Of a DNA stretch of 64,000 nt, positions 3,172 to 60,191 are shown one piece after another (position 1 is the stretch's first letter; every line of letters begins with the position of its first letter). A model generated the notes under the pieces. The model worked only from the letters and a program-made list of their open reading frames with translations, was not told where the DNA came from and did no database searches. The translations under genes and the position numbers were made by a program. This DNA comes from Vicingaceae bacterium (lineage in GTDB: Bacteria > Bacteroidota > Bacteroidia > Flavobacteriales_E > Vicingaceae): positions 17,629-81,628 of the forward strand of contig JAVVER010000001.1 in assembly GCA_032251145.1 (NCBI GenBank), read 5' to 3'.

Positions 3172-4797
3172 ATGAAACACTTTTCACTAACGGTTTTTTT
3201 AATAGCAAACACACTTTTAGCTTGGTCGCAATACAAACAACCTAAATTGGTTGTGGGCATTGTAGTAGATCAAATGCGTTACGATTACATTACTCGTTTT
3301 TGGAATAAATTTAGTGATAATGGGTTTAAAAAATTAATAAATAATGGGTTTAACTGCGAACAAACCCATTTCAACTATATGCCTACCTATACTGCTCCTG
3401 GTCATGCCTCAATTTTTACAGGAACTACACCAGCAAATCATGGTATTATTGCCAATACTTGGTACAACAAAACCAATAAGAGCAATACTTATTGTACAAC
3501 TGACGAAAACTTCGTATCTGTTGGCACAAGTACTGATATGGGAAAAATGTCACCCAATAAATTGTTGGTTACTACTGTTGCGGATGAGTTAAAAACCGCT
3601 AATAATCAATCTAAAGTAATAGGAATTTCTATTAAGGATAGGGGAGCTATATTACCTGTTGGCCACCTTGCTGATGCTGCCTACTGGTATGCGGGTGAAA
3701 ATGAAGGAAAATGGGTTTCGAGTACTTACTACATGCAACAATTACCTAAGTGGTTAAATGAATTAAATAAAAAAAATACTGCGAATACCTATTTACAACA
3801 ACCGTGGGAAACACTTTTGCCCATAAACGATTATACTGAAAGTATTGCCGATAATAACATTTACGAAGAAGTTTTTGAAGGCGAAAAAACTCCTGTTTTT
3901 CCACATAATTTACCAGCATTAAGAAGAACAAATAAAAATTACGATTTAATAAAATCAACTCCTTTTGGAAACACCATTCTGAAAGAGTTGGCTTTTGAGG
4001 TTATTAAAAATGAACAATTAGGTAAAGACCATATTACTGATATGCTTACCATTAGCTTCTCTTCAACAGATTATATAGGACATCAGTTTGGACCTTATTC
4101 CGTAGAAATTCAAGATACATATTTACGTTTAGACAGAGAAATTGCGGAGTTATTATTTTTTTTGGAAAAACAAGTAGGCGAAAATGAATTTATGGTATTT
4201 CTAACTGCCGACCATGGCGTGGTTAACGTGCCTCAACTTGCTATTGATAATCAACTTCCTGGTGGTTATTTTGAAGAAAAAAAAACTTTAGAGAAAATAA
4301 ATACACTGTTTTTTGAAATGTTTAATGTGCAAAAATTAGTGGAAAACTTATCAAATTACCAACTATTTTTTAATCATGCATTAATTAAAGAACATCAATT
4401 AAATTTAATTGATATAGAAAATGCAGCCGTTAATTTTATGTTAACACAAGAAGGAATTGTAAAAGCAGTTTCCTCAACCAATTTAAAAGCAACAGAATTT
4501 TCCGATAAAATTATGGGAAATGTACAAAGAGGATTTCATCAGGTTCGTTCGGGAGATGTACTGTTTGTACTTGCTCCAGGTTGGATAAATAAATGGAACA
4601 CCAAAGGAACCACACACGGTTCGCCATATAACTACGATACTCACGTACCTTTGCTTTGGTATGGAACCAATATTAAAAAAGGTGTTCGAAAAGAGCAGTT
4701 AGCTATTACAGATATTGCAACCACACTCTCTGTGTTGCTAAACATTTCTTTGCCAAGCTCTTGCGATGGAAGTGTGATTGAAGAGCTAATTAAATAA
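3172..4797 (+). CDS. pafA: alkaline phosphatase / nucleotide pyrophosphatase family protein (PafA-like), secreted
   Basis: 541 aa with a signal peptide. LVVGIVVDQMRYDYITRFW and TAPGHASIFTGT motifs are typical of AP-superfamily PafA/NPP enzymes. A TAAATTTG -7 box lies at 3145-3152. Confidence 0.75.
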   Translation: MKHFSLTVFLIANTLLAWSQYKQPKLVVGIVVDQMRYDYITRFWNKFSDNGFKKLINNGFNCEQTHFNYMPTYTAPGHASIFTGTTPANHGIIANTWYNKTNKSNTYCTTDENFVSVGTSTDMGKMSPNKLLVTTVADELKTANNQSKVIGISIKDRGAILPVGHLADAAYWYAGENEGKWVSSTYYMQQLPKWLNELNKKNTANTYLQQPWETLLPINDYTESIADNNIYEEVFEGEKTPVFPHNLPALRRTNKNYDLIKSTPFGNTILKELAFEVIKNEQLGKDHITDMLTISFSSTDYIGHQFGPYSVEIQDTYLRLDREIAELLFFLEKQVGENEFMVFLTADHGVVNVPQLAIDNQLPGGYFEEKKTLEKINTLFFEMFNVQKLVENLSNYQLFFNHALIKEHQLNLIDIENAAVNFMLTQEGIVKAVSSTNLKATEFSDKIMGNVQRGFHQVRSGDVLFVLAPGWINKWNTKGTTHGSPYNYDTHVPLLWYGTNIKKGVRKEQLAITDIATTLSVLLNISLPSSCDGSVIEELIK

Positions 4798-4979
4798 AAA
4801 CAAAACCTCCTATTTTTTTTACTTTTTTTAAACGTAGGTGTAATAGAAACCAAATAAGTTTTGTTATAAAGTTTTCATGTATATTCTTTAAAATTAAAGA
4901 AGATGTTAATTATGAAAACTAGAAGAAAAATCCCTCAAAAAATCCTTAAAGTTTTTTAGGATAGTAGTACTTTTGGGGT

Positions 4980-8264: not shown

Positions 8265-8310
8265 ATTGAAGATAATAAACATAAATTTTTCTTCTTATTT
8301 TTACAACATT

Positions 8311-8880
8311 ATGAATGAAACAAAAAACAGTGCAGTCCAAATTACGGATTGGGTAAATCATTATTCGGATGATCTTTATTCTTGGGCATACCATAAAACC
8401 TCAAACAAAGAATTAGCCGAAGATTTGGTGCAAGAAACCTTTATGGCGGCTTTTAAAGGGGTTGATAATTTTGAAGGAAACAGTTCTCCAAAAACTTGGC
8501 TTTTTAGAATTCTTAATAATAAAATTATAGATTATTATCGTCAGAAAAAGAATTTTAACCACACCTCTATAGATGAAAATGAAAGCATAAAAAATACTGA
8601 TAAACTTTTTGACGAAAATGGTCATTGGGAAACTCCTACCTCCTTTTCCGATAAAGAAGAACACTTATTAGATAACCCCGATTTTAATAAAATTTTAAAA
8701 AAATGCATAGACATTTTGCCCGAAAACTGGGCGTTTGCTATACGATATAAATACATTGTAGATAAAAGTGCTGTAGAAATTTGTAAGGAATTAAATATTT
8801 CTACGTCCAATTATTGGCAAATCATACATAGAGCAAAATTACAGCTTAAAGTATGTTTAGAAAAAAACTGGACTAACTAA
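8311..8880 (+). CDS. ECF-type RNA polymerase sigma-70 factor
   Basis: Region 2 (DLVQETFMAAFKG) and region 4 (HTH near ISTSNYWQIIHRAKLQLK) are present. The track start at 8266 is TTG, abutting the fumC stop, so I prefer ATG at 8311 (MNETKNS). Confidence 0.8.
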   Translation: MNETKNSAVQITDWVNHYSDDLYSWAYHKTSNKELAEDLVQETFMAAFKGVDNFEGNSSPKTWLFRILNNKIIDYYRQKKNFNHTSIDENESIKNTDKLFDENGHWETPTSFSDKEEHLLDNPDFNKILKKCIDILPENWAFAIRYKYIVDKSAVEICKELNISTSNYWQIIHRAKLQLKVCLEKNWTN

Positions 8881-8886
8881 AAAACT

Positions 8887-9162
8887 ATGAGCTTCTTAAA
8901 ACTATCCTGTAAAAAAGCCACCGAAATGGTGGAACAAGAAAAGATAGAATCCCTTTCTTTTGTTGACAAAGTAAAATTAAAACTACATTTATCTGTTTGT
9001 AAGGCTTGTCAAGGATACCAAAAACAAAGCCAACTGATAGATTCTTTTTTTAGTAGAGAAAATCATGAATTACATGATAATGAACTTGGAAAAGACATTC
9101 CGCTAGAAGAAAATCCAAAACTTAAAGAAGATATATTAGCAAAACTAAATCAAAAATTATGA
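8887..9162 (+). CDS. soluble zinc-binding (ZAS, HxxxCxxC) anti-sigma factor
   Basis: 91 aa with no TM segment. C8 ... H34-x3-C38-x2-C41. Lies immediately downstream of the ECF sigma. Confidence 0.65.
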   Translation: MSFLKLSCKKATEMVEQEKIESLSFVDKVKLKLHLSVCKACQGYQKQSQLIDSFFSRENHELHDNELGKDIPLEENPKLKEDILAKLNQKL

Positions 9163-9992
9163 ATTGTAAATTTCAATTAATTGCCATTTTTATTGGCTTG
9201 TTCTTCTCTTGCTCCTCTCCGCAACCCGAAAATGAAGAACCAATAACTGAAAAACAAGAAGAAGTTAAAGAAACTCCTAAACGAAAGTTTCCCAATGCTC
9301 TTGAAAACGGAAAGTTTTTAACAGTTGATGACAAACGCATGATGTATGGAGGAGAAGATTCTACTTGGCATTTTGATGTTTCTAATTTAACCTTAAAAGA
9401 AGAAAACTTTCATTTTGGAATTGGAAGAGAAAGGTTTCATGCACTTATCAAACCCGAATATATTTCTATAGAAGAAGCCGAAAAAGATACCGCTATTACT
9501 GATTCTTCACGGTTCTTATTTGTAAATATTAATGGCGATGTTCGTGCTTACAGTGTTGATTTATTAACCCACCACGAAATTGTAAACGATGTAGTAGGCG
9601 GAGAACCAATTATGGCTGCTTATTGTGTTTTGGCGGATTTGGGAGCTATTTATACCCGTAAACTTGGTGGCAAAGTGTTTACATTTGCGTTAAGCGGTTA
9701 TACCTATTTTGATGAAGAAGTTTGGGATGGGTTAGATGGTTTTGTTTTTTGGGATAGAGAAACCGAAAGCACTTGGTGGCCACTTATCGGGAAAGCTGTT
9801 TCAGGACCTATGCTTGAAACCAACTTAATAGAATACAATAAAGAAAGTTGGGAAGACATCACTTGGGCAGCAATTAAAGCCAAAAACATTCCTGATGTAA
9901 AAGTGCTAAAAAGTGGTCAAACTATGGAGCCACCTAAAACCTGGAAAAAATTTACCGAAAAAGACATAAAGGAAATTAAAGCTACTCTATGA
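9159..9992 (+). CDS. lipoprotein, possibly DUF3179 family
   Basis: Lipobox LFFSC. ATGA overlap with the anti-sigma gene. The family call is from memory of similar Bacteroidota proteins and was not verified. Confidence 0.4.
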   Translation: MNCKFQLIAIFIGLFFSCSSPQPENEEPITEKQEEVKETPKRKFPNALENGKFLTVDDKRMMYGGEDSTWHFDVSNLTLKEENFHFGIGRERFHALIKPEYISIEEAEKDTAITDSSRFLFVNINGDVRAYSVDLLTHHEIVNDVVGGEPIMAAYCVLADLGAIYTRKLGGKVFTFALSGYTYFDEEVWDGLDGFVFWDRETESTWWPLIGKAVSGPMLETNLIEYNKESWEDITWAAIKAKNIPDVKVLKSGQTMEPPKTWKKFTEKDIKEIKATL

Positions 9993-18153: not shown

Positions 18154-18752
18154 ATAACCAAAACAAAAAACCACAAAAAGGAGCATTAGCCACAGGGATT
18201 TTAGCTGCTTTAGCTGCTTCATCGTGCTGCATTCCTCCTGTAATTGCAGCTATAGCTGGAGTTGGTGGAGCTGCCGGAGCTTTATCATGGATGGAGCCAC
18301 TCCGCCCTTATTTAATCGGATTAGCCGTAATAGCCATTGGTTACGCTTGGTACAGTCATTTAAAACCCAAAAAAGATGATGATTGCGGTTGCGAAATCGA
18401 AAAGCCAAAATTTTACCAAACTAAAGGATTTTTGGTGGGAATAACTTTGTTCGCCACTTTATCCATTACCTTTCCTTATTATTCAGGCATATTTTATCCA
18501 GATAGTCAACAAGAAGCAATTATTTCGGAGAATAGCAACATCCAAAAAGTTAATATCAGGATAGATGGTATGACTTGCGATGCTTGTCAACATCATGTAA
18601 ATAGTGCAGTAAATGCTTTACCTGGAATAGTGGCTGTAAATTCTTCTTACGAAAAAGGAAATGCCGAAGTGAAATTTGACAATACACAAACTACGGTTGT
18701 GGAAATAGAAAAAGCCATTAATTCAACAGGATATAACGTAATAAAAAAATAA
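18150..18752 (+). CDS. merTP: mercuric transport protein MerTP (MerT-like membrane part fused to an HMA/MerP domain)
   Basis: TM1 contains SSCCIPP. The C-terminal HMA domain has GMTCDACQ. ATGA overlap with the regulator gene. Confidence 0.75.
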   Translation: MNNQNKKPQKGALATGILAALAASSCCIPPVIAAIAGVGGAAGALSWMEPLRPYLIGLAVIAIGYAWYSHLKPKKDDDCGCEIEKPKFYQTKGFLVGITLFATLSITFPYYSGIFYPDSQQEAIISENSNIQKVNIRIDGMTCDACQHHVNSAVNALPGIVAVNSSYEKGNAEVKFDNTQTTVVEIEKAINSTGYNVIKK

Positions 18753-18756
18753 GATA

Positions 18757-18963
18757 ATGAAAACAGAACTCCATTCAACCATAGCTTGTCCTAATTGCGG
18801 ACATCAAAAAGAAGAAACCATGCCCACCGATGCTTGTCAGTATTTTTACGAATGCGAAAACTGCAAAACGGTTCTAAAACCAATCAATAATGATTGTTGT
18901 GTGTATTGTAGTTATGGAACAGTTCCTTGTCCACCTATTCAAGAAAATAAAAAGTGTTGTTGA
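18757..18963 (+). CDS. GDCCVxC-domain small Cys-rich protein (mercury-operon associated)
   Basis: 68 aa: CPNCGH, CQYFYECENC, NDCCVYCSYG, and terminal CC. All are Cys codons, with no in-frame TGA. Confidence 0.7.
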   Translation: MKTELHSTIACPNCGHQKEETMPTDACQYFYECENCKTVLKPINNDCCVYCSYGTVPCPPIQENKKCC

Positions 18964-53846: not shown

Positions 53847-53943
53847 GGCACTCAGTTTTTTTCCTTAATAATAAAAAATAAAATGTAAGGAAATAAAAAA
53901 CCTTTCGTCTGTTCATCCAAACAAAATTAAAATAAAAAAAAAG

Positions 53944-54423
53944 ATGAACTCAACAACCAAAAAAAGATTAAAAATAATTGCATTTCTTGGCCTAGGCGGA
54001 ATTGTAATTGCTGCAGGCATAGTAATTTATTTATTTAACATGCCTCACAGAGATGTAAAAGCAACTGCTGCAGACTATAGTATTAATGCCGAAGAAATTG
54101 TAGCAGAGTATTTAAAAGATGCTTTGGCAGCAAATGAAAAATATCTTGATGCAGAAGGAGAATCTAAAATATTAGCTGTTAATGGAGTAATAAATGAAAT
54201 TACAGAGGATTTTAATGGAGATAAAGTAGTGTTGTTGAAATCGGACCAAATGGAAGCAGGAGTTAGCTGTACATTTACCCCAGAAACCAACACGCAAGCA
54301 GCCAATTTTAAAGTTGGTGACAAAGTAATTATTAAAGGAGTTATTCGCTCGGGAGCAAGTTACGATGAAGATTTGGAAATGTACGAGCACGTAATTATGG
54401 AAAAAAGTAGTATTCAACAATAA
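53944..54423 (+). CDS. membrane-anchored OB-fold (tRNA_anti-like) protein
   Basis: N-terminal TM helix, 159 aa. The family call is tentative. Confidence 0.4.
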   Translation: MNSTTKKRLKIIAFLGLGGIVIAAGIVIYLFNMPHRDVKATAADYSINAEEIVAEYLKDALAANEKYLDAEGESKILAVNGVINEITEDFNGDKVVLLKSDQMEAGVSCTFTPETNTQAANFKVGDKVIIKGVIRSGASYDEDLEMYEHVIMEKSSIQQ

Positions 54424-54459
54424 TAAATAATAATAAAAACCATTTAAAAATTAAAAATC

Positions 54460-55017
54460 ATGAAAAAAACAATGCTAACCATTATGGCTGTAGCTGCAAT
54501 CAGTTTAACTGCCATGTCGCAAAAATTAGTAACTTCAAAATCTAACATCAAGTTTCACTCGCATACCGCAGCAGAAGATATTGAAGCAAACAACACTAAA
54601 GCTGTTGGAACGATAGATACAAAAACAGGAGAAGTGGTGTTTTCAGTACCAATGCAAGCTTTTGAATTTGAAAAATCATTGATGCAAAAACATTACAACA
54701 GCCCTAAATTTTTGGACACAAAACAATTTCCTAAAGCAAAATTAACAGGTAAAATAACTAATTTATCAAGTGTAAATTTTACAAAAGATGGTACTTATAC
54801 AGTAACAGTAAAAGGAGAGATGGACATGCACGGAGTTAAGAATCCAATTGAAGAACAAGCAACCATTACTATTAAAAATGGAGTAGTTTCGGTAGATACA
54901 AAATTTAAAATTGTATTGGCAGATTATAAAGTTGCATTTGAAAAAGGTAAGCCTTCAACTAACATCGCAAAAGAAGTTGAAGTAACAGTTAGTGCTGATT
55001 ATCAAGCTAAAAGCTAA
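54460..55017 (+). CDS. YceI family periplasmic protein
   Basis: Signal peptide, 185 aa. IKFHSHT ... GEMDMHGV is typical of YceI. Confidence 0.7.
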   Translation: MKKTMLTIMAVAAISLTAMSQKLVTSKSNIKFHSHTAAEDIEANNTKAVGTIDTKTGEVVFSVPMQAFEFEKSLMQKHYNSPKFLDTKQFPKAKLTGKITNLSSVNFTKDGTYTVTVKGEMDMHGVKNPIEEQATITIKNGVVSVDTKFKIVLADYKVAFEKGKPSTNIAKEVEVTVSADYQAKS

Positions 55018-55026
55018 TTCTAAAAC

Positions 55027-55072
55027 AACCCATTAAGCAAATTGTATTAATTATTTGTTTAGTGGGTTTTTA
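55027..55072 (+). terminator. Rho-independent terminator
   Basis: 16-bp stem (55027-55042 / 55053-55068, including two G:U pairs) followed by TTTT. Confidence 0.65.
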
Positions 55073-55086
55073 AAACCTTAAAAACC

Positions 55087-55545
55087 ATGAAGAACTTGAT
55101 TTACCCCATAATTATACTAGCCATTGCAAGCATTTTATTTTTTGCTTTTAAAAGCCCTAATGTAGATTTCAACAAAGATTCTCATGAAGGAATTCAATTC
55201 TATAAAGGAGCTTGGCAAGAAGCACTAGAAAAAGCTGAAAAAGAAAATAAAATTATTTTTCTTGATGTTTATGCAACTTGGTGTGGTCCATGTAAAAAGC
55301 TAAAAGCTTATACTTTTTCTGATGCTACAGTAGGTAGTTTTTATAACAATAACTTTATAAATGTGGCAGTTGATGGTGAAAAAGGCGAGGGCATTGAATT
55401 AGCAAAGAAATATAGTGTAAGAGCTTATCCGACACTTTTGTTTATAAATTCTTCAGGAGAAATAGTTCATAGAACAGCTGGTTATCATAAAGCAAATGAT
55501 TTTAATGAATTAGGTGAACTGGTAGTAAAAAACATTAAAAGATAA
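55087..55545 (+). CDS. exported thioredoxin-family protein
   Basis: WCGPC active site and an N-terminal anchor. Confidence 0.8.
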   Translation: MKNLIYPIIILAIASILFFAFKSPNVDFNKDSHEGIQFYKGAWQEALEKAEKENKIIFLDVYATWCGPCKKLKAYTFSDATVGSFYNNNFINVAVDGEKGEGIELAKKYSVRAYPTLLFINSSGEIVHRTAGYHKANDFNELGELVVKNIKR

Positions 55546-55552
55546 CTAAACT

Positions 55553-56191
55553 ATGAAATTAACATTAGTAAATACCGCCATTATATTATTAATTATGATA
55601 GGATCAGGAAATATTTTCGGACAGGGTAAAAATAAAGAGAAAAAAGAACCGCAAGGATTAGCCATTGGTGATACAGTTGCAAACTTTACAACCATAGATG
55701 CAGATAGTAATTTGTATGTTTTTGAAAATATGATTAAAAAAGGACCAATAGTGGTTATTTTTATTCGTGGTCAGTGGTGTCCTATTTGTAACCGACACAT
55801 GAGTCAGCTACAAGATAGTCTGCAAGCGGTTTACAAAAAAGGAGCTAACGTTGTGGTAATCTCTCCAGAAAAACCCGAATATATTAATAAAACAATTGAA
55901 AAAACCAGAGCTCAATTTACCATACTTTACGATGAAAACCAAAAAATTTCAGACGCGTTTGATGTAACTTTTGAACCCAGTGGAAAAGACAAAATGATTT
56001 ACAATACTGTACTTGGAGCCAAACTAAAAGATGCTCATACTGATGATTCTGAAAGACTTCCTGTACCTGCCACATTTATAATTGATACCAATAAAAAAAT
56101 TGTTTGGAGACATTTTGACACCAACTATAAAAATCGTTCTACTGTAAAAGAAATTTTAGAAAACATTCCCGAAAAAAAGATTAAAAACTAA
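55553..56191 (+). CDS. exported AhpC/TSA-redoxin family protein
   Basis: WCPICN motif and a signal peptide. Confidence 0.7.
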   Translation: MKLTLVNTAIILLIMIGSGNIFGQGKNKEKKEPQGLAIGDTVANFTTIDADSNLYVFENMIKKGPIVVIFIRGQWCPICNRHMSQLQDSLQAVYKKGANVVVISPEKPEYINKTIEKTRAQFTILYDENQKISDAFDVTFEPSGKDKMIYNTVLGAKLKDAHTDDSERLPVPATFIIDTNKKIVWRHFDTNYKNRSTVKEILENIPEKKIKN

Positions 56192-56198
56192 CTAATTT

Positions 56199-56729
56199 AT
56201 GGAAAGGCCAACTCAAGGAAATAACGTTGTTGATTTTGAAATGGAGGATTATTATGGGAAAATGATAAACCTTTCCGATTTTAAAGGTAAAAAAATTTAC
56301 TTAAGCTTTTTTAGAGAAGCATCATGCCCGTTTTGTAATCTAAGGGTTCATCAACTTATTAAAAGATACCAAGAGTTTAAAGATAAAAACATTGTGATTA
56401 TCACTTTTTTTGCCTCATCAAAAGAAGAAATTGCAAATTATGCAGGAAAACAACAAGTACCTTTTATTATTATTCCTGATGCAGATTCATTAATGTATAA
56501 AAAATACAATATAAAACAATCTTCATTAGGAATGATTAAAACCATGACAAATCCAATTAAAATGTTAGAAGTTATGTTTAGTAAGTATTTTAATCTAAAT
56601 GCCCTGAAATCAAAACCAATTTTACCAGCAGATTTTTTAATTGATGAAAATCAACAAATTTATAGAGCATTTTATGGCAAAGATTTCGGAGATCATCTTA
56701 CTTTTGAAGAAATTTTAAATTGGAAGTAA
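56199..56729 (+). CDS. peroxiredoxin-like family protein
   Basis: SCPFCN motif in an AhpC/TSA-like context. Confidence 0.65.
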   Translation: MERPTQGNNVVDFEMEDYYGKMINLSDFKGKKIYLSFFREASCPFCNLRVHQLIKRYQEFKDKNIVIITFFASSKEEIANYAGKQQVPFIIIPDADSLMYKKYNIKQSSLGMIKTMTNPIKMLEVMFSKYFNLNALKSKPILPADFLIDENQQIYRAFYGKDFGDHLTFEEILNWK

Positions 56730-57286
56730 TGTCAAAAATTAAAGTAATACAACACGAGGAAGCCACTGGAAGGCTTAAAGAAATTTATGATGAATTGGTT
56801 GGTAAAAGAGGCAAACTAGCTGAGGTTCATAAAATACAAAGTTTACGACCAGAAAGCATTGTTAAACATATAGACCTTTATTTGGAAATTATGTTTACAA
56901 AATCTGAACTGTCTCGTGCCGAAAGAGAAATGATGGCTGTGGTTGTTTCTGCAGCTAATAACTGCTATTACTGTCAAATACACCATGCCGAAGCACTTAA
57001 CCATTACTGGAAAGATGAGCAAAAAGTAGAGCTTTTTAGAATAAGTTACAACTCGGTACCACTTTCTAAAAAAGAAAAATTATTGTGTGATTATGCAAAA
57101 GAATTAACATTACAACCAGCTATTGATAGTGGAATTGTTGAAGAATTGAAACAATTAGGGTTATCTGATTCAGCTATTTTAGACGCTACTTTGGTAGTGG
57201 CATATTTTAATTTTGTTAATCGAATTGTGCTTTCTTTAGGGGTTAATTTAGAAGAAAAAAACAATGCAGTTGGATATAAATATTAA
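56729..57286 (+). CDS. CMD-domain peroxidase-related enzyme (AhpD-like)
   Basis: NCYYCQIHH motif. The track start at 56720 is TTG, so I prefer ATG at 56729, which overlaps the upstream stop (TAATG). Confidence 0.7.
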   Translation: MSKIKVIQHEEATGRLKEIYDELVGKRGKLAEVHKIQSLRPESIVKHIDLYLEIMFTKSELSRAEREMMAVVVSAANNCYYCQIHHAEALNHYWKDEQKVELFRISYNSVPLSKKEKLLCDYAKELTLQPAIDSGIVEELKQLGLSDSAILDATLVVAYFNFVNRIVLSLGVNLEEKNNAVGYKY

Positions 57287-57288
57287 AC

Positions 57289-57801
57289 ATGAAGTTTTAT
57301 AATTACTACATATTATTAATCTTACCCTTATTTCTTGGCTTTTCAAACCCAACCAAAAACAACAATGCATCTTTGTTTAAAATTGAAAGAAGCAAAGATG
57401 CGAATCAAATATTTTATGATGTTCATTTTATTGAAAAAAACAAGCTAGATTTAAAAAATCCTATTAGCATATATTGGATTAGAAATACTGAAGGTGGCAA
57501 AATAAAACCGCTAACTTGGATTCAACAAAACTATGCTTATGGGTTAGAATTTACAAAAACTTCTGAGAAAATGGCTCAATTTCATTTTGTATCTTATGAC
57601 AAAAGAAGTTTTACACTAAAACAAGTTGGAAAAGAATGTTTTAAAGTTTTTACACAACTAAATGATAAAGAAGTTATTGTAAATCGTATTTTTATACAAA
57701 TAGATGGTGGCACATTTTGGTTTCCAAAAATTTCTAAAGTAGAATTACATACACAAGACCCTACAACAAAAAAAGAAATTGTTGAAATAATTAACCCTTA
57801 A
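57289..57801 (+). CDS. secreted small protein (possibly DUF4833)
   Basis: Signal peptide, 170 aa. The family call is from memory only. Confidence 0.4.
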   Translation: MKFYNYYILLILPLFLGFSNPTKNNNASLFKIERSKDANQIFYDVHFIEKNKLDLKNPISIYWIRNTEGGKIKPLTWIQQNYAYGLEFTKTSEKMAQFHFVSYDKRSFTLKQVGKECFKVFTQLNDKEVIVNRIFIQIDGGTFWFPKISKVELHTQDPTTKKEIVEIINP

Positions 57802-57815
57802 GAATATATACTCTA

Positions 57816-59267
57816 ATGAAACTACCTTTTTCAGCCATAGACACTAAAATGGAAGCAAACAAAAAAGATATTATTTTAACTAAACTGTTTAAACATATTG
57901 AAAATGAAGTTAAAGAATCATTTTTAGATGACACACTTGTTGTAAACTATCAAGAACCTCAATCTCTCAGAGAAAAAATTAATTTTTCAGTACAAAGAAG
58001 CGGAACTTCTGATGAAGAGTTTATTGAACTAATGAATAGTTATATGAACTATTCAGTAAAAACCAACCACAAACAGTTTTTTAATCAACTTTTTTCTGGG
58101 TTTAATTTTCCGGCATTTATAGGAGAAGTAATTACTACATTAACAAACACATCAATGTACACCTATGAGGTTGCTCCAGTAGCAACATTAATAGAGCAAG
58201 AAATGGTTAAGTTAATGAATTATTATACTGGTTATGAAAATGGAGATGGCATTTTTTTAAGTGGAGGAAGTAATGCCAATTTAATAGCAATGTTTTCAGC
58301 TCGAAATCACGCATTGTCTGAAATAAAAAACAACGGAGTTAATGCGTCAAACAAGCAATTAGTAGCATTTGTAAACGAACAAGCTCACTACTCTTTTGAG
58401 GTTGCTGGTAATTTATTGGGCATAGGGGTTAAAAACATAAAAAAAATACAAGCAGATAACTATGGAAGAATGATTCCTGAAAAACTTGAAGAAGCTATCA
58501 ATCTTTCTTTATCAAACAACGAACACCCATTCTTTGTGGCAGCTACCTGCGGAACAACAATCTTAGGAGCTTATGACCCTTTAAATGAATTGGCAGCTAT
58601 ATGTAAAAAACACCAAATTTGGCTACATGCCGATGGTTCTTTTGGCGGCTCTATAATTTTATCTAACCAACATAAATATTTAATTGAGGGTATAGAAAAA
58701 ACAGATTCTTTCACATGGAACCCTCATAAGCTAATGAATATTCCGTTAATCTGTTCCGCCTTATTGGTAAACAAAAAAGGGGTGTTAGAAGAGAATATTA
58801 CAGACATGGATACCAATTATATTTTTCATAACGAAAGCGATATTCAAGATTTGGGCAAAAAATCTGTACAATGTGGTAGGAGGGTAGATGCAGTTAAACT
58901 ATGGTTTGCATGGAAATATTTTGGATTAGAAGGTTATGAAAACCAAATTAATCAATTAATTGATTTAGCTACTTATGCCGAAAATTATGTAAATATTCAT
59001 CCTAACTTAGAGTTAATGTTTACTCGTCAATCTTTTACAGTATGTTTTAGATATACTTCTAATAAAATTACAAATAGTAATAACTTCAATCTTTTATTGA
59101 GAGAACAACTTCGTAAAAAAGGATTATCTGCTGTAAACTATGCCACAATTAACAATCAACTTTTTATAAGGTGGGTAATAACCAACCCTAGCTTAGAGTA
59201 TAAGGATATTGATGTGTTTTTTAACAATTTTTTAAAAGAAGCTAACGAACTTGAAAAGCAATATTAA
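57816..59267 (+). CDS. group II PLP-dependent amino-acid decarboxylase (GAD/CSAD/DDC-like)
   Basis: SFTWNPHKLMN (PLP lysine), SGGSNANL and HADGSFGG motifs. 483 aa. Confidence 0.8.
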   Translation: MKLPFSAIDTKMEANKKDIILTKLFKHIENEVKESFLDDTLVVNYQEPQSLREKINFSVQRSGTSDEEFIELMNSYMNYSVKTNHKQFFNQLFSGFNFPAFIGEVITTLTNTSMYTYEVAPVATLIEQEMVKLMNYYTGYENGDGIFLSGGSNANLIAMFSARNHALSEIKNNGVNASNKQLVAFVNEQAHYSFEVAGNLLGIGVKNIKKIQADNYGRMIPEKLEEAINLSLSNNEHPFFVAATCGTTILGAYDPLNELAAICKKHQIWLHADGSFGGSIILSNQHKYLIEGIEKTDSFTWNPHKLMNIPLICSALLVNKKGVLEENITDMDTNYIFHNESDIQDLGKKSVQCGRRVDAVKLWFAWKYFGLEGYENQINQLIDLATYAENYVNIHPNLELMFTRQSFTVCFRYTSNKITNSNNFNLLLREQLRKKGLSAVNYATINNQLFIRWVITNPSLEYKDIDVFFNNFLKEANELEKQY

Positions 59268-59901
59268 ACATAACGGATTTGCTATTGCCATTGCATGGCC
59301 AGAGACTTTATGCAAACAAGCTGGTGCTTGGTACGATGGTTTAATGAATAGTTTAAAGATAAGCAAGAATAATTACTACAAAGTAGGGCATGCTGCAGTA
59401 GTATTAATTAATGCTCAAACAAACAAATGTCATTATTTCGATTTTGGCAGATACCATACTCCTTATGGCTATGGCAGAGTGCGAGATGAAATTACTGATC
59501 ATGATTTAATTCTGAAAACGTCTCCTGTAATTAAAAGCAATACTATTGAAAATATAGATTCCATTTTAAACGAATTATTAAACAATCCTTCTTGTCATGG
59601 TAACGGGTATTTATTAGCTTCTTATACTTCGGTAACATTTGAAAAAGCTTATGCAAAAGCTAAACAAATGCAACAAAAAGGAGTAATAAAATATGGCCCT
59701 TTTGAGCCAAACGGCACGAATTGCTCTAGGTTTGTTAGGTCGGTAGTTTTATCGGGTAAACCAAAATTCACTTACCAACTTAAATTATTAACCCCTTATT
59801 CTGTTAGCCCAACACCAAAAACAAATGTATTGTCGCTTTCAAATAAACTCATATTATTTCCCGAAGAAAGTACCCTTTTTAAAAATATTGCAATAGCATG
59901 A
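59251..59901 (+). CDS. hypothetical protein with permuted NlpC/P60 (LRAT/YiiX-like) motif order
   Basis: VGHAAVVLI and a second His 14 residues later come first, then GTNCSRFV (compare DCSGFV / NCEHFV) about 110 aa downstream. TTG start overlaps the decarboxylase gene by 17 nt. The next in-frame ATG is at codon 32. Confidence 0.45.
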   Translation: MKSNIKHNGFAIAIAWPETLCKQAGAWYDGLMNSLKISKNNYYKVGHAAVVLINAQTNKCHYFDFGRYHTPYGYGRVRDEITDHDLILKTSPVIKSNTIENIDSILNELLNNPSCHGNGYLLASYTSVTFEKAYAKAKQMQQKGVIKYGPFEPNGTNCSRFVRSVVLSGKPKFTYQLKLLTPYSVSPTPKTNVLSLSNKLILFPEESTLFKNIAIA

Positions 59902-60191
59902 GTTTACAATCTACCTTATTACCGCCCCAAAAACCTCAACATATCCCTGCCGAAAGCCAATGGTTAGCAGGAGAAGGAGCTGGTTCGTGGTTTTGTATTG
60001 AATTACAAAACAACCAATATAAAGTTACTCGCTATTCTCCCGAAGGAAATATAGAATGTGAAGGATTTTTTAGTTGCAAAACAACGGGTTTTGATATTAT
60101 TAAAACCTATGAATTTGTACACTTATCTCATTGTCAAAACGTTACTATCCATCAAAACAGTGTTGTTTTTTCTTTTGAAAGAATAAATTAG
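59898..60191 (+). CDS. hypothetical small protein
   Basis: 97 aa. ATGA overlap with the upstream gene. No motif recognised. Confidence 0.45.
   Translation: MSLQSTLLPPQKPQHIPAESQWLAGEGAGSWFCIELQNNQYKVTRYSPEGNIECEGFFSCKTTGFDIIKTYEFVHLSHCQNVTIHQNSVVFSFERIN

Follow-up and report, generated by a model that had tools for sequence, protein, structure and literature searches.

What joins a decarboxylase dependent on pyridoxal 5'-phosphate (PLP) to a permuted papain-like enzyme whose gene overlaps its own? The question is raised by a 64,000-nucleotide (nt) stretch of DNA from Vicingaceae bacterium (Bacteroidota; assembly GCA_032251145.1, contig JAVVER010000001.1, positions 17,629 to 81,628), which we refer to as the window and number from its first letter. 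At 57289-60191 of this stretch, four co-directional genes encode a small protein of the DUF4833 family, a group II decarboxylase resembling cysteine sulfinate decarboxylase (CSAD), a relative of the Vibrio cholerae effector TseH and the C-terminal domain of DUF6695 (DUF6695-C). We found that the pairing of the decarboxylase with the TseH-like enzyme is real and recurrent, and the evidence that it exists is strong; what the system does we infer from homology and gene context.

The four genes close a ten-gene stress array

The open reading frames described in an earlier note on this DNA were confirmed at 57289-57801 (170 amino acids, aa), 57816-59267 (483 aa), 59251-59901 (216 aa, with a TTG start) and 59898-60191 (97 aa). 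The spacings claimed there (+14, -17 and -4 nt) are correct, the last being an ATGA overlap, and a convergent dxr gene does lie 7 nt beyond the last stop codon. The four genes had been taken for an operon of their own; they are instead the 3' end of a co-directional array of ten genes at 53944-60191, with intergenic gaps of 36, 69, 7, 7, -10, 2, 14, -17 and -4 nt. As the comparison of related loci below makes clear, they are the tail of an oxidant- and thiol-stress operon which occurs across the Bacteroidota. The genes of the array are, in order:

53944..54423, + strand: exported oligonucleotide/oligosaccharide-binding (OB)-fold protein, array gene 1 (PF12869, tRNA_anti-like; Pfam E = 2.2e-16)
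54460..55017, + strand: YceI-like exported lipid/isoprenoid-binding protein (gene cluster c5, orthologs of which carry Pfam YceI)
55087..55545, + strand: exported thioredoxin with a WCGPC motif (Pfam Thioredoxin_2 and Thioredoxin)
55553..56191, + strand: exported AhpC/TSA-redoxin (Pfam AhpC-TSA, E = 1.3e-24)
56199..56729, + strand: cytoplasmic AhpC/TSA peroxiredoxin-like protein (Pfam AhpC-TSA, E = 2.2e-20)
56720..57286, + strand: CMD/AhpD-like peroxidase-related protein (Pfam CMD; NCBIfam TIGR01926, 141.6 bits against a cut-off of 81.8)
57289..57801, + strand: DUF4833 protein, exported or membrane-anchored (PF16117, E = 5.7e-36; hydrophobic N-terminus)
57816..59267, + strand: CSAD/GADL1-type group II PLP decarboxylase (PF00282, E = 6.6e-87)
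59251..59901, + strand: TseH-like permuted NlpC/P60 Cys-His enzyme, catalytic half (PF25218, E = 6.5e-48; without a signal peptide)
59898..60191, + strand: DUF6695 C-terminal domain, separately encoded second half of the TseH-like enzyme (PF20405, E = 8.3e-28)

The 216-aa and 97-aa proteins together make up one enzyme

The 216-aa protein matches the Pfam family TseH (PF25218) over residues 11-169, scoring 163.2 bits where the cut-off is 27. Its proposed identity as a permuted papain-like (NlpC/P60) protein was borne out by this match, by the order His, His, Cys of its motifs and by a sequence match to the TseH crystal structure 6v98 (E = 3.7e-4), a His of which aligns with H47 of the VGHAA segment. 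When a profile of the TseH-like family was compared with the PDB, 6v98 alone was matched, with no match to LRAT or YiiX. The motifs VGHAAVVLI and GTNCSRFV picked out in the earlier note are both present, and H47 and C158 within them do not vary among 20 aligned homologs. The His proposed 14 residues beyond H47 (H61) did not hold up, as some homologs have F, N or Y there; in the same alignment H69 (of GRYH), C21 and H116 are invariant and C115 is nearly so. We also looked for a non-papain fold, for unconserved His and Cys residues and for a lack of synteny, and found none of the three.

The 97-aa protein, which had been listed as unknown, was identified as the C-terminal domain of DUF6695. Its model is a small seven-strand beta domain (predicted local distance difference test score, pLDDT, 86.5) with no significant solved relative in the PDB. 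Its invariant residues are WLxGxGxGSWF, R45, E53-C54, S77-H78-C79 and Q86.

Homologs of the 216-aa protein (n = 1,017) are mostly 203-230 aa long and contain PF25218 alone, and a minority of 310-348 aa contain PF25218 followed by PF20405. Among 79 loci the two domains were fused in 36 (~45%) and split in 43, the split pairs often overlapping by 4 nt. An exhaustive profile search of 1.84 billion representatives found DUF6695-C only as a free protein of ~100 aa or at the C-terminus of proteins of ~300-357 aa, and on no other catalytic domain. The fusions and this exclusivity together indicate that the 97-aa protein is a second half rather than an immunity protein, and the two products are thus the halves of a single cytoplasmic TseH-like Cys-His enzyme. 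A frameshift artefact was rejected as the cause of the split: as so many relatives are split, often at the same ATGA overlap, this is a normal architecture of the enzyme. The closest relative (94% identical, represented by many contigs) shows the same kind of split.

The pairing and its surroundings recur across the Bacteroidota

Random sampling of the phylum was sparse, with PF25218 in 3 of 41 relatives and 6 of 301 Bacteroidota genomes, and we used targeted retrieval of loci instead. The resulting set holds 80 loci around TseH-like genes from species-representative genomes, with neighbours clustered into families and junctions counted at 79 loci. A second kind of decarboxylase did not appear among the 80. 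The most frequent neighbour families were thioredoxin (Trx; 47 loci), YceI (43), PF12869 (42), AhpC (40), DUF4833 (33) and CMD (22). The recurrent order is an extracytoplasmic function (ECF) sigma factor, a 91-aa Cys-containing anti-sigma-like protein, PF12869, YceI, Trx, AhpC, CMD, DUF4833, a variable cassette and the TseH-like/DUF6695 enzyme. The full co-directional set is present in order in the window (the position of its sigma and anti-sigma-like genes is described below), as it is in the loci L058, L068 and L196, and dozens of other loci keep this order in part.

The gene directly 5' of the TseH-like gene belongs to one of two main types. In 49 of the 79 loci it encodes TANGO2, itself preceded by a gene for a DinB-like protein of ~168 aa, and in 13 it is a decarboxylase of the window type. 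The upstream gene overlaps or abuts the TseH-like gene (-50 to +19 nt) in 62 other loci, and the junction seen in the window is therefore not due to chance. The adjacency of the decarboxylase and the permuted enzyme, which the earlier note had suggested checking by synteny, recurs in several Bacteroidota orders.

Where the decarboxylase is present in genomes, the gene before it most often encodes an Arg-type cysteine dioxygenase (CDO; PF05995, with SYGR and HNH motifs), as in 9 of 14 loci; in four Vicingaceae-type loci, including the window, DUF4833 takes the place of CDO. In a reciprocal test, 80 metagenome loci were collected around the decarboxylase, and 24 of them had CDO with it. A TseH-like gene followed the decarboxylase at 15 of the 18 evaluable loci in which CDO preceded it, compared to 7 of 41 otherwise.

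The decarboxylase replaces a DinB-like and TANGO2 cassette

The locus L196, from a widespread marine relative, encodes a TseH-like protein 92-94% identical to that of the window and has the same ten-gene backbone, with DinB-like and TANGO2 genes in the slot which the decarboxylase occupies in the window. In a blastn comparison of the two, positions 53859-57801 of the window (ending at the DUF4833 stop codon) aligned at 80-81% identity, the entire decarboxylase gene gave no alignment, and homology resumed at 59265, 14 nt inside the TseH-like gene, continuing to 60192 at 90.6% identity (L196 7012-7939). The exchanged stretch is:

57802..59264, + strand: replaced cassette, the one part of the operon that blastn does not align with its near-isogenic TANGO2-type counterpart L196

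The decarboxylase and the DinB-like/TANGO2 pair are therefore related by a boundary-exact cassette replacement in a near-isogenic operon. The higher identity of the TseH-like/DUF6695 segment, compared to that of the backbone, suggests that this segment was recently exchanged between lineages.

To count such events, the label "decarboxylase upstream" was placed on a maximum-likelihood tree of the TseH-like domain. It changes 9 times, at least 7 of these changes being forced by well-supported branches, and the sister of the window on this tree (support 98/94) is a TANGO2-type locus. One metagenome-assembled genome, Draconibacterium sp. JTS-AC346, holds both a CDO-decarboxylase locus and a DinB-like-TANGO2 locus with closely related TseH-like genes (L073 and L098), which indicates that the cassettes are not mutually exclusive within a genome. 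Judging by their conserved residues, the displaced partners look like active enzymes: the TANGO2-like proteins keep Met-Cys2 in 49 of 50 cases, together with the (S/N)RDE motif, and the DinB-like proteins have five invariant His residues. TANGO2 was not found in the window or in its genome.

The decarboxylase is of the CSAD/GADL1 type

The assignment of the 483-aa protein to the GAD/CSAD class proved correct and can be refined to the CSAD/GADL1 type. The NPHK motif with the PLP-binding lysine is present (TWNPHKLM), and the best solved relatives are mouse CSAD (4.9e-99) and human CSAD (1e-95), followed by GADL1 and GAD65/67. The residue at the position of mouse CSAD Phe94, where GADL1 has Tyr and GAD has Ser, governs the binding of cysteine sulfinate, and GADL1-type enzymes decarboxylate aspartate too (bioRxiv 10.1101/2020.09.25.308866). 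The window decarboxylase has Phe here, within the pattern F-x19-S-x-Y, its NQLFSG aligning to FFNQLFSG of 6zek; the same position is Tyr in 13 of 13 cluster homologs, and the downstream S-x-Y is kept in all but one of the cluster decarboxylases. These residues suggest that the product is most likely hypotaurine, made from cysteine sulfinate, with cysteate or aspartate as possible substrates.

The nearest NCBIfam models are far from being reached, with 207.6 bits against a cut-off of 900 for 2,4-diaminobutyrate (DABA) decarboxylase (NF052646) and 155.2 against 606.1 for PanP (TIGR03799). The genome encodes its own pyruvoyl PanD, so the supply of beta-alanine does not need the window decarboxylase, and as no more than 3 of the 11 genus genomes carry the decarboxylase gene it can be regarded as accessory. 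CDO_I (PF05995) had no match in this 97%-complete genome or in the 10 other genus genomes searched.

Regulation

A candidate ECF-type promoter lies in the 97-nt gap 5' of the first gene of the array, and genes for a sigma factor and its putative partner are found elsewhere in the window:

53889..53909, + strand: candidate ECF-type promoter, GGAAAT-N11-CGTC
8266..8880, + strand: ECF sigma factor, 58% identical to cluster c9, the representative of which carries Pfam Sigma70_r2/r4_2
8887..9162, + strand: small Cys-containing (CKAC) anti-sigma-like protein, matching cluster c8, which follows the ECF sigma gene in 31 loci
9159..9992, + strand: DUF3179 protein (tblastn match to cluster c11, the representative of which carries Pfam DUF3179)

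The last three, in which the anti-sigma-like protein is a 91-aa CxxC protein, overlap or abut at 8266-9992, and MerT/MerC-like genes occur at ~18159-18948. In other genomes all of these belong to the conserved cluster, DUF3179 being one of its frequent members. In the window they lie 35-45 kb upstream of the operon, with genes for giant outer-membrane proteins in between. The ECF sigma factor may regulate the operon of the window.

The words of the candidate promoter recur, as TGT(C/A)AGGAA(A/C)-N11-12-CG(A/T)CT, 5' of orthologs of the first array gene in three loci of the Vicingaceae type. The enrichment of the motif GGAA(A/C)-N10-13-CG(A/T)C over all loci was weak, an unbiased bipartite motif search 5' of 31 ECF sigma genes did no better than shuffles, and a scan for sigma-70 promoters and terminators was not above chance.

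DUF4833 and other neighbouring genes

The 170-aa protein had been described as a small secreted protein. It can now be named DUF4833 (PF16117), and with its hydrophobic N-terminus it may be either exported or membrane-anchored. The AlphaFold model is all-beta (pLDDT 88.7), and a Foldseek search of the PDB with it returned no significant solved relative (best E = 0.045).

A second, near-universal DUF4833 paralog of 190 aa lies outside the window (contig C33:15129-18649 of genome G000; also loci L005-L014), between a CDP-alcohol phosphatidyltransferase of the phosphatidylinositol phosphate (PIP) synthase type and a PAP2_3 (AUR1-like) protein; the gene for myo-inositol-1-phosphate synthase adjoins. 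This setting is the Bacteroidota inositol-lipid cluster, the published account of which does not mention DUF4833, and it is kept in every genus genome with flanks available. Two genomes from further afield (G036 and G037) did not show this link. An anecdotal lipid-related setting was also observed for the TseH-like pair itself, which in one Cyclobacteriaceae locus (L067) lies between genes for a lipid A deacylase of the LpxR family and a transporter of the MMPL/RND type.

Three loci from Cytophagales/Roseivirgaceae (L051, L060 and L079) have a fused TseH-like gene and neither cassette. In L060 and L079 this gene comes directly after DUF4833, and in all three it is followed by a 536-aa protein with Rieske and glutamate-synthase-like flavin mononucleotide (FMN) parts and by a conserved 267-aa protein with no Pfam match. 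A free-standing CoaB-like protein of 224 aa (PF04127, phosphopantothenate-cysteine ligase domain) recurs between YceI and DUF4833 in TANGO2-type clusters (L050, L061, L071, L086, L092, L094, L097 and others), a hint of cysteine-ligation or pantetheine chemistry. Finally, in G010 a remnant of ~50 aa of the DUF4833 C-terminus, with an in-frame TAA nearby, lies directly 5' of the decarboxylase (contig C131, loci L020/L022, ~4685-4900); an intact CMD-DUF4833 pair ends a different contig of this genome, which may reflect an assembly break or a rearranged copy.

A proposed function and its alternatives

Our preferred reading, to which we give a probability of roughly 40%, is that the decarboxylase makes an amine and the TseH-like/DUF6695 enzyme makes or cuts an amide of it, for defence against oxidants. 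The decarboxylase would produce a small amine derived from an acidic amino acid, most likely hypotaurine; taurine from cysteate would be the fallback product, because the genome lacks CDO. The TseH-like/DUF6695 enzyme would then make or break an amide (N-acyl) bond to this amine through an acyl-thioester at Cys158, and the resulting or recycled sulfinate-bearing conjugate could serve as a sacrificial antioxidant under oxidant stress. In the alternative cassette, TANGO2 and the His-rich DinB-like metalloprotein may supply an amine of this kind in a different way. PLAAT enzymes are N-acyltransferases, which move acyl groups to amines. Among permuted NlpC/P60 relatives, Tox-Act1 and TseH are phospholipases in vitro and LRAT/PLAAT proteins are acyltransferases (PMC12994826), and the fold of TANGO2 matches amidases and acyltransferases whose substrates are N-acyl derivatives of small amines, taurine conjugates among them (PMC13044924). 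The proposal of amide chemistry draws on these acyl activities, on the TANGO2 fold and on the recurrence of the coupled cassettes. The N-acylation of the decarboxylase product put forward in the earlier note remains a plausible proposal. A more specific version, in which the decarboxylase cassette (with or without CDO) and the DinB-like/TANGO2 cassette are interchangeable suppliers of a small sulfur amine (hypotaurine- or cysteamine-like) which the TseH-like/DUF6695 enzyme N-acylates or de-acylates into a sulfinate conjugate or aminolipid active against oxidants, is doubtful as a whole.

Several observations weigh against amide chemistry on the decarboxylase product. With no CDO found in the genome or genus, the supply of cysteine sulfinate lacks an evident source. 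The additional invariant Cys and His residues (C21, C115-H116, C54 and H78-C79) hint at metal or redox chemistry outside the acyl model. The juxtaposition of the decarboxylase and the TseH-like gene in the window also looks recent. The decarboxylase ends the operon in two genus relatives (G007 and G010), with one genome lacking any TseH-like gene, and the TseH-like gene occurs with neither cassette in 5 loci and with a DinB-like gene but no TANGO2 in 5 more. As each of the two genes is found without the other, the two steps are not obligatorily linked, and adjacency within a stress regulon may reflect co-regulation only.

Alternatively, the genes may answer one and the same stress while being chemically independent, the decarboxylase providing soluble hypotaurine or taurine as antioxidant or osmolyte and the TseH-like/DUF6695 enzyme, as a phospholipase/acyltransferase, repairing or remodelling oxidised membrane lipids. 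TseH and Tox-Act1 do cleave phospholipids in vitro, many products of the cluster are envelope redox or lipid-binding proteins (such as YceI, AhpC and Trx), a DUF4833 paralog sits within the inositol-lipid cluster of the genus, and the TseH-like gene of the Cyclobacteriaceae locus L067 has LpxR and MMPL transporter genes as its neighbours. Decarboxylases that lack a TseH-like partner, as in G007 and G010, and TseH-like genes that lack both cassettes, as in some loci, would also be expected. We nevertheless consider independence somewhat unlikely, since it leaves unexplained why 62 of 79 slots, with overlapping stop and start codons, are filled by one of two cassettes and why the TseH-like gene follows CDO-decarboxylase pairs so much more often than decarboxylases in other contexts. 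The order of reactions could also be reversed, with the TseH-like/DUF6695 enzyme acting first as an amidase on a cysteine-containing low-molecular-weight thiol or its S-conjugate and the cassette disposing of the product in a mercapturate-like manner, through CDO and the decarboxylase or through processing by the DinB-like protein (a thiol transferase fold) and TANGO2. DinB-fold proteins include thiol S-transferases and N-terminal nucleophile (Ntn) hydrolases include gamma-glutamyl-type amidases, which offer a precedent; neighbours connected to thiol stress (Trx, AhpC, CMD, MerT/MerC and, in several loci, the CoaB-like ligase) and the many invariant Cys and His residues in both halves of the enzyme would fit as well. 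However, no thiol-biosynthesis genes were tied to the cluster here, the gene order (cassette first, TseH-like last) does not favour it, and the window has neither CDO nor the DinB-like/TANGO2 pair, so that the downstream steps would be incomplete; we regard an amidase acting first as unlikely.

Two further explanations can be largely set aside. The decarboxylase could serve ordinary biosynthesis, of beta-alanine for coenzyme A (CoA) or of 1,3-diaminopropane for a polyamine or siderophore, with its neighbours being incidental. The nearest NCBIfam models (DABA decarboxylase and PanP) point in this direction, as does the use of aspartate by GADL1-type enzymes, yet the scores are far under the equivalog cut-offs, the genome has its own PanD, the gene is confined to a minority of genus genomes and its partner in most relatives is CDO, which makes biosynthesis highly improbable; DABA decarboxylase, PanP or beta-alanine supply was rejected as a main role on the sub-cut-off scores and PanD. 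The other is that the 216-aa protein is an antibacterial toxin of the TseH type with the 97-aa protein as its immunity protein. Membership of the Pfam family TseH is consistent with this, and a 2026 paper places the TseH clade (then Pfam DUF6695) in conflict contexts (PMC12994826). However, the 97-aa domain is fused to the supposed toxin in 36 of 79 relatives and the similarity to TseH itself is limited to the N-terminal His region. The type VI secretion system (T6SS) components TssC (PF05943) and Hcp (PF05638) were not found in the 97%-complete genome, and no VgrG, PAAR, secretion or conflict genes were among the recurrent neighbour clusters of the 80 loci, in which redox genes recur. A T6SS toxin/immunity pair was rejected on the domain fusion, the exclusivity of DUF6695-C and the lack of TssC and Hcp, and anti-phage defence was rejected as PADLOC gave no match; we regard the toxin reading as almost certainly wrong. 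With no T6SS, no recurrent conflict genes and no PADLOC match, the published statement on conflict fails for this Bacteroidota branch.

Novelty and implications

Searches of the literature found no paper linking TseH with hypotaurine, or TANGO2 with CSAD or DinB, and none mentioning DUF4833; the Bacteroidota ECF-sigma thiol/oxidant-stress cluster is undescribed in print. What is new here comprises the near-isogenic boundary-exact replacement, the reciprocal-anchor counts, the number of switches on the tree, the exclusivity of DUF6695-C and the absence of CDO from the genus genomes searched. If the coupling is metabolic, it would add a phylum-wide third step after the route from cysteine to hypotaurine, and it would give a physiological role other than that of a toxin to the TseH branch of the permuted NlpC/P60 proteins, which is now filed under "biological conflict". 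The repeated, boundary-exact exchange of CSAD and TANGO2 cassettes amounts to a natural experiment, which can be read as the two doing equivalent jobs for the same downstream enzyme. Should this interchangeability be true, TANGO2 would be an amidase releasing such an amine, a testable biochemical function for a human disease protein. As the function of TANGO2 is a long-standing question in human metabolic disease, this operon provides a simple bacterial system in which genetics and biochemistry could address it.

Comparison with known systems

The window enzyme shares with TseH (VCA0285, the Vibrio cholerae T6SS effector of structure 6v98) the Pfam family PF25218, the permuted order of His before Cys and the conserved catalytic His and Cys. 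The similarity extends over only ~90 residues in the N-terminal His region; C21 has no counterpart in TseH, and C115/H116 lie outside the aligning stretch. Unlike the effector, the window enzyme is cytoplasmic, stands in a housekeeping or stress setting in a genome without a T6SS and carries the obligatory extra domain DUF6695-C. LRAT/PLAAT (H-RAS-like suppressor) proteins and Tox-Act1 belong to the same superfamily and have the same permutation and catalytic residues, but the 216-aa protein has no direct sequence match to them and no membrane anchor, and its activity is a predicted one.

The ECF sigma factor and small Cys-containing anti-sigma-like protein resemble the pairs of oxidant-stress regulons of the Neisseria SigE and Haemophilus RpoE2-HrsE type. 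Such a pair heads the cluster in 31 loci, whereas the pair of the window is 45 kb from the operon, the promoter match at which is a weak candidate.

Taurine is made by CDO and CSAD in animals and in bacteria, the bacterial CDO-CSAD operons reportedly having been described by Agnello et al. (2013, ACS Chem Biol 8:2264). The window has in common with this taurine route a CSAD-like group II PLP decarboxylase with Phe at the specificity position, and most of the related genome loci (9 of 14) have the Arg-type CDO directly upstream of the decarboxylase. It differs in that no CDO was found in its genome or genus and in that the gene lies within a thiol-stress operon, coupled to a third, uncharacterised enzyme. 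The last comparison is with TANGO2, the human disease protein with the fold of a Cys N-terminal-nucleophile hydrolase, a homolog of which, with Cys2, fills the slot of the decarboxylase in most relatives; its relation to the window decarboxylase is one of displacement and not of homology.

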